A stretch of DNA of 64,000 bases from Gammaproteobacteria bacterium (lineage in GTDB: Bacteria; Pseudomonadota; Gammaproteobacteria; Eutrophobiales; Eutrophobiaceae). The number at the start of each line of letters is the position of its first letter. The stretch's first letter is position 1. The notes beneath the pieces are model-generated. The model made no database searches, was not told the origin of the DNA, and saw only the letters and a program-made list of their open reading frames with translations. Shown here one piece after another: positions 9,603-61,037 of the stretch. The stretch covers positions 2,400,001 through 2,464,000 of the forward strand of contig OZ244905.1 in NCBI GenBank assembly GCA_965221695.1, given 5' to 3'. Both the position numbers and the translations under genes were made by a program.

Positions 9603-9629
9603 GGCGCCTCTGACTTTATCAGAGGCTCC
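9603..9629. repeat. Short palindromic repeat-family member
   Basis: GGCGCCTCTGA-cttta-TCAGAGGCTCC between convergent genes. Confidence 0.7.
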
Positions 9630-18111: not shown

Positions 18112-18206
18112 CCTGAATAGCTCAGATATGGTTCGCCCCGGTATTGCAAGCGTAAGGGTAGCCCGAATATCTCAGATATGGTTCACACCGGTATTGCAAG
18201 CGTAAG
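18112..18206. repeat. Two-copy tandem direct repeat, period 50 bp
   Basis: gaatag/t-CTCAGATATGGTTC(gcc/aca)CCGGTATTGCAAGCGTAAG occurs at 18121-18156 and 18171-18206. Confidence 0.85.
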
Positions 18207-20150: not shown

Positions 20151-20178
20151 GGAAACTCTGACTCAATCACAGAGTTCC
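20151..20178. repeat. Degenerate palindromic repeat-family member
   Basis: GGAAACTCTG-actcaatca-CAGAGTTCC. Confidence 0.6.
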
Positions 20179-20907: not shown

Positions 20908-22224
20908 ATGCATGCAAGAAAAAAAGTCAATCCGTATACGCCCGGCGCTGGCGCAACTCCGCCCGTCTTGGCCGGGCGAGTAGCGGAACAGCGCGCATTA
21001 AATAAAGGGCTAAACAGAATCTGTCACCCTGACGGACCGTATGCGCCCAAACATATACTGATCAGTGGCCCCCGGGGCGTCGGAAAAACAGTTCTTCTCA
21101 ACTGGGTAGAAAAAGAATTTGCCGGTAAATTCAGTACCGGAAATATAATCAGCACACATTCCCGAAACATCAGGACAATTACGGATCTGGTCAGCGTGTT
21201 GGACAAGAATGTCATAGACAATTCCATACTTTACGGATGGCACGCGGGAGGGGGTATCGTTACAGGGTCGGGAGAATATGGCAAAACTCCAGTTCCCCAT
21301 GTTGTCACCCCGCCATGGGAGCATCTGCTGGAACAATCATTGTTGTCGAAACATGCCGTGCCGGAAGGCGGGCCTGCCACTGATATGCCTCCGCTCCTGG
21401 TGACCATTGATGAGGCGCAAAACCTGACAGGAGAATCAGCGGGCGCAATTGCAAATCTGGCCCAAAGCGCCAATCGTTACAAGGCGCAGATATGTTTCAT
21501 ATTGGCGGGCACGCCGGAATTAATGAGCCACCTGACGTCTGTCGGGCCCAAAGACCCTTCAACCGGGAAGACAATGACGGCTACATTTATTGAGCGCGCC
21601 GATAAGGTTTACCCTGGCCTGCTTGATAAAGACGCTTCCTTTGAGGCGCTGTTTACGCCGTTTCAGGAAGAGAAATGGCAAATCGATGATGCCGTGATGA
21701 ACGATATCCTTGCCGATGCACAGGGCTACCCCTGGTTTATTCAGCTATGGGGAGAAGGGCTTTGGGATAATGGCCTTAATGACAAAAAAATCAACCGAGC
21801 GGTCATGGAAATGACGAAGGACAAAGTAATTCGTGAACGGATATCTCTCTATCAGGCCAGATTGAATGAATTAAACGATCCCCTGAGTGAAGATATTGGG
21901 GGCAGGCAGGTGCTGCGTGCAGCCAGGGTGGTCGCCGAACGCTTTTTGTCTCAGGACAATGCCCCCATGTTGGAAACAGAATTAACGCAAACATTGGATA
22001 CGCTGGAAGAAGCAGGGATTTCATCCAATGCGCACAAATCCCTGAAAATGCGATTTCTCCACACAGGGTTCCTGGTAGAAGGCCCCGCATACGGAGATCT
22101 TCCCGCTTCTGAACAGATGTACTGGCGGTCCGGGATACCTTCTCTTGCGAATTTTGTTATCCGATCAACCTCACACTTGACGACAGCGCCTGAGCCTGAT
22201 GATGCGGCACTGCCAAAGCCATGA
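20908..22224 (+). CDS. Stand-alone P-loop AAA ATPase (AAA_16/archaeal-ATPase-like)
   Basis: NPYTPGAG.PPVLAGR, Walker A GPRGVGKT, Walker B LLVTIDEAQ, GYPWFIQLWG. Confidence 0.85.
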   Translation: MHARKKVNPYTPGAGATPPVLAGRVAEQRALNKGLNRICHPDGPYAPKHILISGPRGVGKTVLLNWVEKEFAGKFSTGNIISTHSRNIRTITDLVSVLDKNVIDNSILYGWHAGGGIVTGSGEYGKTPVPHVVTPPWEHLLEQSLLSKHAVPEGGPATDMPPLLVTIDEAQNLTGESAGAIANLAQSANRYKAQICFILAGTPELMSHLTSVGPKDPSTGKTMTATFIERADKVYPGLLDKDASFEALFTPFQEEKWQIDDAVMNDILADAQGYPWFIQLWGEGLWDNGLNDKKINRAVMEMTKDKVIRERISLYQARLNELNDPLSEDIGGRQVLRAARVVAERFLSQDNAPMLETELTQTLDTLEEAGISSNAHKSLKMRFLHTGFLVEGPAYGDLPASEQMYWRSGIPSLANFVIRSTSHLTTAPEPDDAALPKP

Positions 22225-22482: not shown

Positions 22483-22511
22483 TTGACCTGACTAGTCTGA
22501 CCAGATATAGT
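22483..22511 (+). promoter_or_regulatory. Sigma70 promoter of the phd-vapC pair with an operator-like palindrome
   Basis: TTGACC-17 nt-TATAGT; GACTAGTC palindrome in the spacer; ATG 7 nt downstream. Confidence 0.6.
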
Positions 22512-22794: not shown

Positions 22795-23171
22795 GTGTTG
22801 CCTATGTGGACACCTCTGCGCTGGTTGCCGTGGCCTTCGATGAAAGCAGTGGCGCGGCAATGGTTAATCAGCTTGGCGATATCCCATATCTGCTGTCATC
22901 GAACCTGCTTGAAGCGGAACTCCGGTCTGCCTGCTTGCGCGAAGGTATCAACTTCTCCCCGGCTATCTTCTCCAACCTTAAGTGGGTATTACCCGACCGG
23001 CCACTGGTTCCTGAGATAACAGCAGTCCTTGAAGCCGGGTACTTGCGCGGCGCTGATTTGTGGCATGTGGCTTCGGCGTTGTATGTTGCAAGGGAACCGG
23101 AACAGATGTGGTTCCTGACGCTGGATGCGCGGCAGCGTTCTGTCGCCGAGGCAGTCGGGTTCAAAGTCTGA
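22791..23171 (+). CDS. PIN-domain (VapC-like) toxin
   Basis: YVDTSAL, E.E, LRGADLWHVASA, LTLD.RQ; 4-nt overlap with the antitoxin. Confidence 0.88.
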   Translation: MSVAYVDTSALVAVAFDESSGAAMVNQLGDIPYLLSSNLLEAELRSACLREGINFSPAIFSNLKWVLPDRPLVPEITAVLEAGYLRGADLWHVASALYVAREPEQMWFLTLDARQRSVAEAVGFKV

Positions 23172-23229
23172 TCATTCCAGCCGCGTCTCATGTCAGAGAG
23201 AGATAGGGCAACACTGTTATTCCGGTGGA

Positions 23230-24552
23230 TTATGTGCGACCCCCCCACAACGCCCGCCAGTGGTTGACCATGTAAAATGGTATGGACAGTACCGGCTTTT
23301 CATATTGCAGTGGCGCTGTTGATATTTTAATTCCCCATTCCTGGTGTTTTTCCTGGAGAAACAGGTGCAGGCTTTTCAGTCTGCCGGTTTTTCCCGCTTT
23401 TACCTCTATCGGGACCAGGTCGGTATCGGACTGGCAGACATAATCAATCTCGGCGCTGCTGTTTTTGGCCTCCCTGGCCCAATAATACAGCGCCGGTTTG
23501 TCGAAACAGTCCTGGCTGGCGATGAGTTCCTGTCCTACGAATTGTTCCATTAATGCCCCCCGGTAAATCTTCATAAGGTCTTTTTCCAGGATAATATCCG
23601 AAGCCAGGCCGCATAGATTTTGCATCAAGCCGACATCTAGAAACAGTACCTTGAAAAAACGTTCGTTGATGTTTGCTCCGAGGGGCAAACCCTCCGCAGA
23701 GGATCTGATCACTTTGTGATAGACGCCGGCCAGCGCCAGTAGATCCAGAGCGTTTTTTGTATTTTTTGACAGTTCGTCGGGGTCCACCTTGACGTATTTG
23801 AATTTGTGACCCACCTGTTGCACAGCGGATTGAAAGACCTTGCCGATGTGTTCCAATCGTCCGAATTTTACATACTTGTTGAAATCATCCCGGTAGGTTT
23901 GCAGTAGTGAGGTCTGAATACGGCGACAGCGCTCATAACTGCCGGACTGCCGGTATTCTGCCACGACTTCCGGCATCCCGCCGATCAGCAGGTACTCTCT
24001 TACCCTGTTGAGCATCGCATTGTGAACAGCCGGTTCCGCGAACAAAGCCCGATCATGCGCAAGCGCTTCCACTGCTGACTCCTGTCCTTGGGCAAACAGA
24101 AATTCCTCAAAACTCATGGGCTTCATATGAAGGTATTGCACGCGTCCCACCGGCATCGAAAACCCGCTTGCGTTCAAGGCTAACTCCAATAATGAACCTG
24201 CTGCAACTACATGAAGTTCCGGCGTTTGTTCATAAAAATAACGCAAGGCAGCAACAGCTTTGGGAAATGCCTGGATCTCGTCAATAAAAAATAATGTTTT
24301 GCCGGGAACTACCTTTTGTCCAGTCAGTATTTCGACCTTGTTCAGTATCTCCTGAGGCTTCATGCTGTTGAATATCTCCGCAACCTGAGGTTCCGCTTCA
24401 AGATTGATAACGGCCATATCGGAGAATTCCTGTTTTCCGAACAGGCTCACGGAATAAGACTTGCCTACCTGGCGCGCGCCACGGATTAATAACGGCTTGC
24501 GTCGGGAATCATTTCGCCACTCTCGCAGCACAGCATCAATAGAACGCTTCAT
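23230..24552 (-). CDS. AAA_14 ATPase with C-terminal DUF4143 (PD-(D/E)xK-like) domain
   Basis: RKPLLIRGARQVGKS, FFIDEIQ, GGMPE, EIDYV..PIEVKAG. Confidence 0.92.
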   Translation of the reverse strand: MKRSIDAVLREWRNDSRRKPLLIRGARQVGKSYSVSLFGKQEFSDMAVINLEAEPQVAEIFNSMKPQEILNKVEILTGQKVVPGKTLFFIDEIQAFPKAVAALRYFYEQTPELHVVAAGSLLELALNASGFSMPVGRVQYLHMKPMSFEEFLFAQGQESAVEALAHDRALFAEPAVHNAMLNRVREYLLIGGMPEVVAEYRQSGSYERCRRIQTSLLQTYRDDFNKYVKFGRLEHIGKVFQSAVQQVGHKFKYVKVDPDELSKNTKNALDLLALAGVYHKVIRSSAEGLPLGANINERFFKVLFLDVGLMQNLCGLASDIILEKDLMKIYRGALMEQFVGQELIASQDCFDKPALYYWAREAKNSSAEIDYVCQSDTDLVPIEVKAGKTGRLKSLHLFLQEKHQEWGIKISTAPLQYEKPVLSIPFYMVNHWRALWGGRT

Positions 24553-24594
24553 GGTTGGTGTCACCGACAAAGAAAACGGCAATATACTGCTGAA

Positions 24595-50957: not shown

Positions 50958-51578
50958 TTATATTGGAGTGGTCAACTGTTTCAGGAAGTCCCGGACATGG
51001 TTGAGGGCAGCATGGTCCAAATTCCAATAGCCTTTTTTTGCTGCGACACCAACTGACAATTCCGGATGTTCCCTGGTTGATAAAAAGGAGAACGCGAGGG
51101 ATTTATCAGGCCGCTTTATGGAGTTGCCGGTCCGTTTTTTGATACATCTGAAGAACTCATCAATACAGATATACTCAGGTTCCTCTGCAATCGTTCTGCA
51201 AAGCAATGTCTCAAGCATACCTTCTGCGTTGTCTCCCGGGAGGATCAGTACGCCCGGTCCCGGGCGATCAGAGAGAAACTTGCACGGTTTTTCAGGGGAC
51301 GGAAGATCGTTATTTTCTAATGCGGATTTGACGCTTTGAAATGCGGATAATGCATCTTTTTCAGCATCTCGAACAATACCTAATCGGGTAACGAGGGCAA
51401 AACGGGGCGATTGAATAAACGAGGCTAAGAATTTGCTTAAATCGTTGACACCACCGAAGTCATGAATCTGGATCCCGTCCAAGGAAAGATGCTGACAAAA
51501 ATGTTCAAAAAAATTTCTCTGGTCATTACCTTCTACAAGAAGTTGTGCGCGTTTTTCAATCTCTTTTCGTTTTCCCAT
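50958..51578 (-). CDS. DUF3226-like TOPRIM-fold protein
   Basis: LLVEGND, GIVRDAE, LPG...GMLETL, KGYWNLDH; directly downstream of the ABC-type ATPase. Confidence 0.75.
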   Translation of the reverse strand: MGKRKEIEKRAQLLVEGNDQRNFFEHFCQHLSLDGIQIHDFGGVNDLSKFLASFIQSPRFALVTRLGIVRDAEKDALSAFQSVKSALENNDLPSPEKPCKFLSDRPGPGVLILPGDNAEGMLETLLCRTIAEEPEYICIDEFFRCIKKRTGNSIKRPDKSLAFSFLSTREHPELSVGVAAKKGYWNLDHAALNHVRDFLKQLTTPI

Positions 51579-51580
51579 AT

Positions 51581-52648
51581 TTAGCGAACTTCCATATCAT
51601 ATTCAATTGCTGTTTTTATTTTCTCTTTGTCATAGCCGACACATTTGGTTTCTGTCTCTGCGGATTCGAGACGGTAAACATTAAATATGCCATTGTCGGA
51701 CACATCAAATGTCTGGCTCGCAGCTTCAATACATTCATAACTATGCGTAGTTGCAACAATCTGCGTGTTGAATTGTTCAGTGGCTTCTCTAGTGACTTCC
51801 CAGATTTTAGAGAGTACCGAATGATGAAGACCGTTCTCAAACTCATCGATTAATACAACGCCATCGGGCGTTGACGAGATAGCCAAGACAATACGGGCAA
51901 GTTGGATCATGCCATCGCCCATTACAGGTAAAGGGACTAATTCATTAAGCCCGATATCTCCCCATATCATGGAGGTTCCGGTGGCAGAATTCACTTCAAG
52001 ACTTTGTAACCTAGGCTCAATAACTTGCAAAGCTTTAACAATCAAGCCTCCTTGTTTTTGTCGCCGTAGCTGGCTCAATCGTTGCGCATTTTCCTCTGAA
52101 TTTCTGTTGCGGAAAGAAAGGATAGTACTCGGAAATGGTGGTTCCGGTAAGGGCGACTGAGACTCAGCCTGCATCCCGCCGCTTGTGACAGTGATATTAA
52201 AATTTGCCTTCGGTGTGCCATTCAGTATGTAATCGAGCACAAAGGTTTCACTACTGTAGAGTTTTTCTCCGAGAGTGACATTGCCATCATCAAATGGCAG
52301 TTCAAATAAATTCGGTTGTTTAAGAGACAGTCTGACCTTTAAATCTCCGCAAGAGGAATGATGACCGGAAATTTCTATGGGCTCAGACATATCCAGGTTA
52401 TGGAATATGGGTTTCCATAATAGATTTTGTATATCCTCTTTCGAACCGGAATGTATTGATAGGCCACGTAATACGTTTTGATTCAATAGCAAACCGGGAT
52501 TTGAGGCCCCAGACAGAAGAAAAATAGCTTCAAGCAGACTTGTTTTTCCTGAATTGTTCTGCCCGCAGAATAGATTGATTTTCCCCAATCTGTCGATGTT
52601 AAGCGGCTTAAAGGCTCGAAAATTATCAATGCGCAGCTTTGATAACAT
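51581..52648 (-). CDS. AAA_15/AAA_21 (ABC-type) ATPase
   Basis: NFRAF, Walker A GQNNSGKTS, signature GDG, Walker B VLIDEFENGLH, H-loop TTHS; AT-rich relative to the flanks. Confidence 0.9.
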   Translation of the reverse strand: MLSKLRIDNFRAFKPLNIDRLGKINLFCGQNNSGKTSLLEAIFLLSGASNPGLLLNQNVLRGLSIHSGSKEDIQNLLWKPIFHNLDMSEPIEISGHHSSCGDLKVRLSLKQPNLFELPFDDGNVTLGEKLYSSETFVLDYILNGTPKANFNITVTSGGMQAESQSPLPEPPFPSTILSFRNRNSEENAQRLSQLRRQKQGGLIVKALQVIEPRLQSLEVNSATGTSMIWGDIGLNELVPLPVMGDGMIQLARIVLAISSTPDGVVLIDEFENGLHHSVLSKIWEVTREATEQFNTQIVATTHSYECIEAASQTFDVSDNGIFNVYRLESAETETKCVGYDKEKIKTAIEYDMEVR

Positions 52649-52680
52649 GGATTTACCTTGTCATAGTGATAATATGTTAA

Positions 52681-52833
52681 GGAACCTCTGATTAAGTCTC
52701 AGAGGTTCCTACGATACAAGGATGTATCGTCAAAATCAATGACTGTAAAGCATTGATTTTGAGAGGAAAACAAAAATCGTATTTTTGTTTTCCGTACTCT
52801 GACAAGTCCAGGATGGACTTGTTCAGAGTTTCC
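52681..52833. mobile_element. 153-bp MITE-like element, terminal IRs GGAACCTCTGA/TCAGAGTTTCC, TTAA on both sides, five internal hairpins
   Basis: ttaa at 52677-52680 and 52834-52837; hairpins at 52681-52709, 52711-52730, 52731-52761, 52765-52793 and 52796-52829. Confidence 0.75.
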
Positions 52834-53001
52834 TTAATTTATCGGCTCATTGCATTCTGATATGGTCCGGATTTACAGAGGTCCTCAGATATCCCTGTCT
52901 GAATAACGAACAAAATGGTTGAAAATATCATAGCAGGCTGATGAAGCGATTCTACTGTATTTCAGTATAGAAAGGAACGCTACTTACACAAAACTATACT
53001 G

Positions 53002-53238
53002 TCAAGCTCTACGTACCTTTCTCCCCGAAGAATTAACGGGAAGATAAGTTATGTTAGAACGTAACGTCCCTTCTTCAGGTTCATTCCAATCAGGCTTCCA
53101 TTTGCTGCAATACCAATATATATTCTCATTAATCTTCTTGGTTTCAAGCGTTGATTGCTTAGAAAACTCAATCAAAGCAGTGTCGGCGTCTTCAAAAAAT
53201 TTAAGTTTAAGGATCCTGCCTCTTAAAATCTCAGTCAC
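53002..53238 (-). pseudogene. Frameshifted DUF2283-like small (TA-associated) gene remnant
   Basis: KLKFFEDADTALIEFS..ETKKINENIY resembles the DUF2283 N-terminus; the expected continuation NGSLIGM is in a shifted frame. Confidence 0.55.
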
Positions 53239-54476
53239 ATCATCCCCTTCTGTAGATCTATCAGGTAGTCAATCTCCTCTTCGGTGTTGAAGAAATGCGC
53301 GCTGATGCGCAGGTTGCCTACGCCGCCCAGGGCGCGCATGGAGATCTTGATAGGCCTCATGCCGCGGCCTGGAGCGGCGCAGCGTTGGAAGAATGCCAGA
53401 TCCTTGTCGTAATCTCCCGTGGTGTAAGTGATCAGGCCATGGCGTTTTTTCGGGTCGGTGGGGCAGGTTACCCGGCAGCCGATTTCCTCCAGCCTGTTGA
53501 CGGTATAGGCGCCCAGGCGGCGCACCCGTTGCTCGACATTTTTGATGCCTATCTTCTCGTAGAACTTCAGGGTGGCCACCCAGCCGAACAGCGATGGACC
53601 GATAGTGGTGTCTTGGGAAAAGCGGTTGGCGTTGTTCACCGGAGGATAATTCCAGCTTGCCAGGTTGTCGTGGTCGCGGTCTGCGAAGGGGATGGAACCA
53701 GGGATATCCGCCCAGATGTAATTGCGGTAGCGGGCGTCGATGCGGTCCATGACGGAACGCTTGATGTAAAAGATGCCGGCTCCTTCCGGTCCGCACTGCC
53801 ACTTGTAGGCGCCTGATACCAGAAAGTCGACGCCGTCATCCTTAACGTCTATGTCCACTGCGCCCAGGGCCTGCATGGCGTCATCCAGAACCAGGGCGCC
53901 CTGGGCATGGGCAATCCGGCAGACTTCCTTCATGTCGAAGGTGAACCCGCAAAACGCCGCAGTGCGATCCACAATCACCATACGGGTATCGCCGTCCACC
54001 TGTTTTTCCATATCCTCCATGCGTATTTCGCCGTTAACGTTGCGTACCACCCGGATCTCAATGCCATGACGGCGCCGCAGGTCCTGCAGAATATAAGGGA
54101 TAGACGGGTATGACAGGTCTGTGATCACCACGTTGTCGGATTCCGACCACTCCATCATGTTATAAAGGATCAGGTTGGCAGTGATCGCCGGCCGGTATGC
54201 ATTGGTGACCTCATCCTTGTCTGCATTGATAAAGCGCGCGCTCAGACGCACGCTCTCGTCCCATTTTGCAAGCAGGAATGGATGGGTGGCGATGTCAGCA
54301 GTAGGAATGTCTTCCATGCGGCCATATTCGACGAAGTTATAGAAATCGCGGACAGCTTTAAGCCAGTAATTACCTGGCGCCATCTGGTCTGCCGCGTTCA
54401 GGTAGACCCAGTGCTCAAGCAGTTTGAATTCGGCGCGGACCTCGTCCAGGTGTACGTCAATATAGTTCTCAGCCAT
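53235..54476 (-). CDS. Class V PLP-dependent aminotransferase/desulfurase-like enzyme
   Basis: YLNAA, DDAMQALG, SGAYKWQCGPEGAG (PLP Lys), LRISAHFFNTEEEID. Confidence 0.88.
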   Translation of the reverse strand: MAENYIDVHLDEVRAEFKLLEHWVYLNAADQMAPGNYWLKAVRDFYNFVEYGRMEDIPTADIATHPFLLAKWDESVRLSARFINADKDEVTNAYRPAITANLILYNMMEWSESDNVVITDLSYPSIPYILQDLRRRHGIEIRVVRNVNGEIRMEDMEKQVDGDTRMVIVDRTAAFCGFTFDMKEVCRIAHAQGALVLDDAMQALGAVDIDVKDDGVDFLVSGAYKWQCGPEGAGIFYIKRSVMDRIDARYRNYIWADIPGSIPFADRDHDNLASWNYPPVNNANRFSQDTTIGPSLFGWVATLKFYEKIGIKNVEQRVRRLGAYTVNRLEEIGCRVTCPTDPKKRHGLITYTTGDYDKDLAFFQRCAAPGRGMRPIKISMRALGGVGNLRISAHFFNTEEEIDYLIDLQKGMM

Positions 54477-54624
54477 CTTGTTGTTTACCTGCAAAACGGT
54501 AATTATAGGGGAAAAGCAGGATCTGTGAGCTTTGTTTCGGACAATCCCTCCAGATGTGATTATGCGACGCCCTCCGGGCGACACAATATTACCGAGCTTG
54601 TGGTTGTGTTGAAATGGTAAAATA

Positions 54625-54652
54625 GGCGTACTCTGATTAAATCAGAGGTTCC
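54625..54652. repeat. Short palindromic repeat-family member
   Basis: GGCGTACTCTGA-ttaaa-TCAGAGGTTCC-taa. Confidence 0.75.
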
Positions 54653-56154: not shown

Positions 56155-56196
56155 GGAAACTCTGAACAAGTCCGTCCTGGACTTGTCAGAGGTTCC
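56155..56196. repeat. Repeat-family member equal to the reverse complement of hairpin 5 of the 153-bp element
   Basis: GGAAACTCTGAACAAGTCC-gtcct-GGACTTGTCAGAGGTTCC, flanked by ttaag and ttag. Confidence 0.85.
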
Positions 56197-61010: not shown

Positions 61011-61037
61011 GGAAGCTCTGACTTAATCAGAGGTTCC
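61011..61037. repeat. Short palindromic repeat-family member
   Basis: tta-GGAAGCTCTGA-cttaa-TCAGAGGTTCC-ctta just after the TonB stop codon. Confidence 0.75.

Follow-up and report, generated by a model that had tools for sequence, protein, structure and literature searches.

Between a defence-like operon and an aminotransferase gene, in a 64,000-nucleotide stretch of gammaproteobacterial DNA (contig OZ244905.1, positions 2,400,001 to 2,464,000; here called the window), lies a short sequence that is almost completely paired with itself. The preliminary description read it as a mobile element of five back-to-back hairpins, two of which present GGA in the loop in the manner of binding sites for CsrA/RsmA. 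The locus raises two questions: what kind of element this is, and what its GGA loops are for.

A search for complementary arms was used to delimit the element. Positions 52677–52837 (161 bases) comprise 153 bp bracketed by TTAA at 52677–52680 and 52834–52837, and contain five hairpins with arms that are 100% complementary, in full agreement with the earlier account. The features are as follows.

52677–52680, no strand assigned: left 4-bp target-site duplication, TTAA, with the same TTAA at the other end
52681–52691, plus strand: left terminal inverted repeat core, GGAACCTCTGA, matching the ends of the pA81 IS5-family element
52680–52710, plus strand: hairpin 1 (H1), arms 52680–52691 and 52699–52710, 12 bp, loop TTAAGTC
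52711–52730, plus strand: hairpin 2 (H2), arms 52711–52718 and 52723–52730, 8 bp, loop AGGA
52730–52762, plus strand: hairpin 3 (H3), arms 52730–52741 and 52751–52762, 12 bp, 9-nt loop
52765–52793, plus strand: hairpin 4 (H4), arms 52765–52777 and 52781–52793, 13 bp, A/T-rich, loop CGT
52796–52829, plus strand: hairpin 5 (H5), inner arms 52802–52810 and 52814–52822, 9 bp, loop GGA at 52811–52813
52823–52833, minus strand: right terminal inverted repeat core, GGAAACTCTGA, from the repeat search
52834–52837, no strand assigned: right 4-bp target-site duplication, TTAA, from comparison of the family flanks

The element thus consists almost wholly of hairpins. It contains no transposase gene, and its size is within the limit for MITEs (under about 500 bp). 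The terminal inverted repeat is 27 nt long and 81% complementary (52672–52698 with 52816–52842), and is built into the two end hairpins, with three further hairpins (H2–H4) carried between them as cargo. In H1 the left terminal repeat pairs with an inverted copy of itself that lies inside the element, in the order repeat, loop, inverted repeat; H5 has the order partial repeat, inner hairpin, repeat, and in the predicted fold its outer stem is made from the right terminal repeat. The GGA of the H2 loop occupies 52720–52722, within ATACAAGGATGT at 52714–52725, a sequence that reads as originally described. Both strands fold far better than shuffled sequences: the plus strand has a folding energy of −76 kcal/mol against a shuffle mean of −32.6 (z −10.6) and the minus strand −76.9 (z −15.1), and in each case none of 200 shuffles was as good.

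The preliminary description also referred to a copy at 56155. Relatives are indeed present in the window, but the only five-hairpin copy is the one at 52677–52837 and the others, six or more, are short forms resembling H1 or H5. The terminal 11-mer GGAACCTCTGA occurs 15 times with at most one mismatch, where 0.79 occurrences are expected. Most of the short forms (those at 1910, 9603, 20151, 54630 and 61011) have the order repeat, 5–7 nt loop, inverted repeat.

1910–1938, no strand assigned: H1-type palindrome
9603–9629, no strand assigned: H1-type palindrome, diverged
20151–20178, no strand assigned: H1-type palindrome, diverged
54630–54652, no strand assigned: H1-type palindrome, left arm degraded
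56155–56196, minus strand: an H5-type inner hairpin between both terminal repeats, with TTAA(G) and TTAG as flanks
61011–61037, no strand assigned: H1-type palindrome (repeat, 5-nt loop, repeat)

The form at 56155–56196 reads ACAAGTCCGTCCTGGACTTGT on the plus strand, which is CCAGGACGG on the minus strand, so that the GGA-type motif attributed to its minus strand is present. There is no second occurrence of H2, H3 or H4 within the 64-kb window.

Outside the window, a genome scan with the end-palindrome pattern found at least 113 loci which, among the matches listed, are almost all from Gammaproteobacteria, and mostly from uncultured ones. The hosts include Lysobacterales, Xanthomonadaceae, Acidiferrobacterales, Chromatiales, Wenzhouxiangellaceae, many unclassified MAGs and the cultured Thermomonas alba SYSU G04536, in which locus L031 holds a full copy, and in many of the loci H2, H3, H4 and H5 directly follow the palindrome. 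A profile search of these loci gave at least 46 near-full-length matches, with copy coordinates taken from nhmmer. A covariance model built from 35 copies gave 46 matches at E ≤ 1e-25, located in the window and 43 loci, among the matches listed. The five-hairpin element is present in at least 45 copies in 43 loci; the MAG chromosome OZ251218.1 carries at least six full copies at scattered positions, and the CALODJ01 assembly at least four. The order of the hairpins is fixed between the same ends in at least 43 loci. We also found deletion forms in which H2 is joined to H5 (loci L026 and L109) and a tandem pair of copies (L111).

Three further observations concern individual loci. The copies in L009, L058 and L090, all from contig OZ251218.1, contain a second small palindrome. 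This nested palindrome, CCTGCCTGCTGCAGGCAGG, lies within loops or stems of several copies in that one genome, which suggests another mobile palindromic repeat that targets hairpins. In L074, a copy (272–432) abuts an isopropylmalate/isocitrate dehydrogenase frame (3–269) that covers profile positions 174–263 of 348, and may interrupt or truncate a gene. Finally, Spirochaetes, Clostridia and other non-proteobacterial MAGs (L016, L017, L046, L050, L052, L053, L063 and L070) also have the 11-nt end palindrome, enclosing inner sequence that is unrelated; these loci either belong to further IS5-type MITE families or match by chance.

The family does not correspond to any entry in Rfam: the element has no match at gathering scores, and at E ≤ 10 the matches are at chance level, the best being STnc250 with 23.9 bits against a cut-off of 42. 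The literature searched yielded no description of it, and its end sequence was met only in unrelated primers. It is therefore best filed as a family that we have not found described, a five-hairpin IS5-group MITE spread across many mostly uncultured Gammaproteobacteria.

The assignment to the IS5 group comes from the flanks and the ends. We were able to parse the flanks of 43 copies (three of the 46 rows were unparsed), and 31 of these have identical 4-bp sequences on the two sides. TTAA is the commonest (13 copies), followed by CTAA, TTAG and ATAA (3 each), CTAG (2) and others. In 15 of the 31 the flank is non-palindromic (CTAA, ATAA, TTAG and others), and the flanks are therefore direct target duplications lying outside the inverted repeat. 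IS5-group elements duplicate 4 bp at YTAR-like targets, and the set of flanks fits such a target. At both ends the family copies share the 11-nt core GGAAnCTCTGA, which matches the ends of an insertion sequence on plasmid pA81 and resembles those of E. coli IS5. The pA81 insertion sequence was found by a plasmid search with the whole element, which matched with the H5 end only, in two records of this one Achromobacter plasmid, where an annotated IS5-family transposase gene ends. It is complete (L114, 1837 to 3034) and has TTAA on both sides, and 1148 nt separate its inverted ends, GGAAGGTCTGAACAAGG and GGAACCTCTGAACAAGTCC; its transposase matches IS5, ISPre1 and ISPpu21-type transposases and is a typical IS5-group protein. 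The left, transposase-proximal end of E. coli IS5A reads GGAAGGTGCGAACAAGTCC, and the H5 end of our element, read from outside on the minus strand, reads GGAAACTCTGAACAAGTCC. The H5 side corresponds to the transposase-upstream end of the parent type, with the GGA strand antisense to that transposase, and the H5 hairpin derives for the most part from the transposase-proximal end of IS5-type elements. We found no counterpart of the H1 fold-back or of H2–H4 in the pA81 element or in the plasmid collection searched, and no transposase gene among the 52 non-overlapping ORFs of the 64-kb window. The earlier identification as a MITE is thus upheld by terminal inverted repeats, 4-bp target duplications, many copies in many genomes, and ends that match an IS5-family insertion sequence. 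We conclude, with a probability of about 85%, that we are dealing with a non-autonomous transposon (MITE) of IS5-group origin, and that it belongs to a large family in mostly uncultured Gammaproteobacteria.

Such an element would move by means of an IS5-type DDE transposase supplied in trans, which would recognise the GGAAnCTCTGA ends, cut the element out and insert it at A/T-rich YTAR-like tetranucleotides, with duplication of 4 bp (here TTAA). The short forms, consisting of H1 or H5 alone, would either move themselves or arise by deletion. The element would land in intergenic DNA in either orientation, and its effect on its neighbours would be to place a strong multi-hairpin block in any transcript that reads through it.

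Conservation of the hairpins was analysed across the family. RNAalifold applied to a MAFFT alignment recovered only H1 and H2, because H3–H5 were not aligned in register. The structure was therefore fixed from the window copy, a covariance model was built, and the 46 copies were realigned. In this realignment, which is fitted to the structure and so leans towards it, standard pairs occupy 93.5% of 2584 cells; when the partners are slid by 1–3 columns, pairing still falls to 31–52%. Changes on both sides are seen in 40 of 59 pairs, with the proviso that copies within one genome are close relatives and their cells are not independent events, and the covariation score of 0.369, against 0.125 in shuffles, was reached by none of 500 shuffles. 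In H1, 9 of the 12 pairs never vary, because this hairpin is the terminal repeat; covarying pairs make up 6 of 7 modelled pairs in H2, 11 of 12 in H3 and all 13 in H4. Compensatory change maintains all five hairpins. The stem cells comprise 2356 Watson–Crick pairs, 61 G·U and 36 A·C when read on the GGA strand. With so few G·U pairs (61 of 2584) the stems look more like DNA palindromes than typical RNA, and the small excess of G·U (61) over A·C (36) gives a weak hint of RNA-level selection on the GGA strand.

The loops were compared in the same 46 copies. The H1 loop has 14 variants, the H3 loop varies freely (38 variants), and the H4 loop region is partly conserved as ATCRCA. The H2 loop reads [C/T]A-N-GGA-N-G, with GGA in 45 of the 46 copies and a preceding base that may be G, C, A or T; in the H5 loop GGA is found in 42 copies, and the preceding base is also variable. 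Outside the ends, these two GGA triplets are the only triplets in unpaired columns to be conserved at 85% or more. They are in direct orientation, unlike the transposase sites at the two ends. Setting loop conservation against stem covariation, as the preliminary description proposed, thus gives a conserved GGA in two loops above stems that covary, so that the proposed test is passed. Transposition does not readily account for two loops in which GGA hardly varies and the base ahead of it is free. The loops suggest a partner that recognises a specific sequence, with CsrA/RsmA as the leading candidate.

CsrA and RsmA recognise loops with A(N)GGA that are closed by ACA/UGU: the CsrA SELEX consensus is RUACARGGAUGU, the CsrB motif CAGGAUG, and the RsmE motif A/UCANGGANGU/A. 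At the level of sequence, the H2 and H5 loops fit this recognition pattern. The exact match to the CsrA consensus claimed for the window copy is correct, ATACAAGGATGT fitting RTACARGGATGT, and no other stretch of the 64-kb window matches RTACARGGATGT exactly. In Rfam the element has no match to the CsrB, CsrC or RsmX/Y/Z families even at E ≤ 10, and a crude pattern search did not find csrA in the 64-kb window. Literature searches on MITEs with CsrA, and on repetitive elements with RsmA or the GGA motif, gave nothing on the element, and a MITE review searched for CsrA does not mention it.

An RNA role for the GGA loops requires that the GGA strand be transcribed, and we therefore considered the genes around the element. 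In the window it lies in a low-GC islet (50958–53234, about 38–47% against about 57% G+C) between malic enzyme and aminotransferase genes.

50958–51578, minus strand: DUF3226 / PDC-M38B-like protein, second gene of the pair (9.5e-15)
51581–52648, minus strand: AAA_21 ATPase, AbiLi / PDC-M38A-like (AbiLi 4e-60, PDC-M38A 7e-56)
52776–52805, minus strand: weak sigma-70-like match inside the element (TTGTCA, 18 nt, TACGAT; 9/12), pointing at the operon
53235–54584, minus strand: aminotransferase gene, on the other side of the element

The matches to AbiLi / PDC-M38A and PDC-M38B confirm that the neighbouring operon is defence-like, and the two genes of the islet probably make up a defence system acquired by horizontal transfer. 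The start codon of the ATPase is 28 nt from the end of the element, and the 400-nt spacer that separates the element from the aminotransferase gene (52838–53234) is non-coding and has no Pfam match. The GGA motifs are on the strand opposite to the operon, as stated previously, and relative to both neighbours the GGA strand is antisense. The transcript of the AbiL/PDC-M38-like operon would either start inside the element or carry it within the leader, in the UCC-loop orientation; the alternative to a place in the leader is that the element supplies a weak promoter. By its position in the control region of this defence pair, it may affect the expression of the pair. The candidate internal promoter was rejected: it is a single 9/12 match, the four sigma-70-like sites in the region are not significantly more than the 2.6 found in shuffles, and the family consensus has no A at position 2 of the −10 box, so that the match is not conserved.

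Two other features of the window were noted. At 18112–18206, just after an aldehyde dehydrogenase gene, there are two tandem 45-nt units that are 91% identical and 50 nt apart. A small ORF at 22510–22791 matches the Phd family of antitoxins (2.5e-07); the ORFs beside it, 20908–22221 and 22871–24582, have no NCBIfam match.

For the family as a whole, ORF length and GC3 alone could not assign the strands of the neighbours, and Pfam was used instead. The two longest open frames per flank per copy were taken, giving 163 frames, of which 36 matched Pfam, 33 of them at E ≤ 1e-4. Among these 33 neighbours, the GGA strand is the same as that of the gene in 17 and opposite in 16; with all 36 the split is 18 to 18. 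Twenty of the 33 genes end beside the element and 13 start beside it. The 17/16 split implies that the family inserts in either orientation, and that selection for any RNA role of the GGA strand leaves no visible trace in the way the copies are oriented. The GGA strand was thus not found to be consistently the transcribed strand, either by the neighbours (17/33), by the window copy or by a conserved internal promoter.

These results bear on several ways of explaining the element. The hairpins could be a mosaic of independent REP/BIME-type extragenic palindromes, spread by a RAYT-type tyrosine transposase or by recombination. REP and BIME elements are independent short palindromes with a conserved head tetranucleotide (GTAG-type) and no target duplication, and in keeping with this, lone H1-like and H5-like palindromes do occur in the window and elsewhere, and each of the five hairpin units is a separate perfect palindrome. 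However, H2, H3 and H4 never occur alone in the window, their order between one and the same pair of ends is constant in at least 43 loci, it is the whole five-hairpin unit that carries the 4-bp direct duplications, its ends match an IS5-family DDE element, and neither the window copy nor the family alignment has a GTAG-type head sequence. The mosaic reading is thereby largely refuted by the fixed hairpin order, the element's own ends and the 4-bp duplications, and we regard it as very improbable. The identification as an IS5-group MITE leaves the GGA loops to be accounted for, and they could work from either strand. If the opposite strand is the functional one, its UCC-rich loops, AUCCCUGU and CAUCCUGG, would serve as putative anti-Shine–Dalgarno or seed sequences: whether in cis or in trans, they would base-pair with ribosome-binding sites that contain GGA, and at this locus would do so within the leader of the AbiL-like operon. 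The UCC strand is co-oriented with both the downstream operon and the upstream gene in the window, conservation of GGA is equally conservation of TCC, and an 11-nt stretch of the H5 arm (52796–52806) is 91% complementary to 52657–52667, overlapping the ribosome-binding region of the operon; in a transcript that reads through the element this pairing could mask the ribosome-binding site, or it may be due to chance. Set against this, the counts of G·U and A·C favour the GGA strand and not the UCC strand, the orientation bias is absent either way, and the 11-nt match is one of nine pairs in a 300-nt region with 6-nt seeds; its partner is in the flank, so that it is not a feature of the family. 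We regard a role for the UCC loops as highly improbable.

The alternative for the GGA loops is that the IS5-group MITE has become a mobile CsrA/RsmA-binding module. The transcribed GGA strand would present H2 (ACA-N-GGA-UGU) and H5 (C-N-GGA-UG) as candidate sites that regulate the host transcript, and many copies together would titrate CsrA. In its favour are the GGA of the two loops, kept in 45 and 42 of 46 copies above stems that covary, the exact fit of the window copy to RTACARGGATGT, the shared orientation of the two motifs, as repeated sites in a sponge RNA would have, and the G·U count of 61 against 36 A·C. Against it, the GGA strand has no preferred orientation relative to neighbouring genes (17/33) and in the window is antisense to both of them, no conserved promoter was found that would make this strand independently, each element has only two GGA sites, the rare G·U pairs (61 of 2584 cells) make the stems resemble DNA palindromes, and the H5 hairpin is inherited from an insertion-sequence end. 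We consider this module unlikely. The CsrA idea as such passes the test of sequence and fails that of neighbour strand, and is in our judgement doubtful. Its fullest form would be that a transposon family acquired two consensus CsrA/RsmA-binding hairpins and that selection maintains them, so that each insertion could wire a transcript into the Csr/Rsm regulon and dozens of copies per genome would act as a dispersed CsrA sponge; this version too we consider unlikely.

Should CsrA/RsmA indeed bind the GGA loops, a global post-transcriptional regulon could be rewired by transposition, and the element would be a mobile cassette for post-transcriptional regulation in environmental Gammaproteobacteria. 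Otherwise the family would still be a marker and an item for annotation in many uncultured Gammaproteobacteria, a source of false "structured RNA" calls, and a clean example of IS5-type MITE biology.

The closest known relatives are the IS5-group elements themselves. The terminal GGAA..T..GAACAAGTCC is common to E. coli IS5, the 1.2-kb pA81 element and our element, and the pA81 copy has TTAA duplications, as in the window. However, IS5-group elements are about 1.2 kb long and carry a transposase, whereas this element is 153 bp long without a transposase gene, and unlike the pA81 element it has an internal inverted left end (H1) and three extra hairpins (H2–H4). Correia elements (NEMIS) of Neisseria and ERIC/IRU of enterobacteria are structured intergenic MITEs of 100–160 bp, which are co-transcribed with their neighbours and can alter mRNA stability or supply promoters. 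Our element is likewise a small, highly structured, intergenic MITE; but Correia and ERIC elements fold as one long hairpin from their two ends, whereas it forms five local hairpins in a conserved order, it derives from a different transposase family, and it duplicates the 4 bp YTAR and not TA. The bcr1 element of the Bacillus cereus group and BOX of pneumococcus are dispersed, modular and about 150 bp long, with a predicted RNA structure kept by compensatory changes. The element is similar to them in size, compensatory structure and modular build, with different hosts and ends, and to our knowledge neither is known for conserved A-N-GGA loops. MITEs are common, but we know of few bacterial families with a fixed multi-hairpin build kept by compensatory change across orders, and of no other in which two loops with the recognition motif of a global RNA-binding regulator are conserved. 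For those loops the comparison is with CsrB/CsrC, RsmX/Y/Z and CsrA-regulated leaders. Unlike the Csr/Rsm sponge RNAs, the element has two sites, is mobile and multicopy, may be transcribed from either strand, and has no dedicated promoter or terminator that we could find within it. Like them, it has GGA in hairpin loops, and to judge by their sequences its H2 loop fits ACA-N-GGA-N-GU and its H5 loop CAGGAUG, as in CsrA-type sites.
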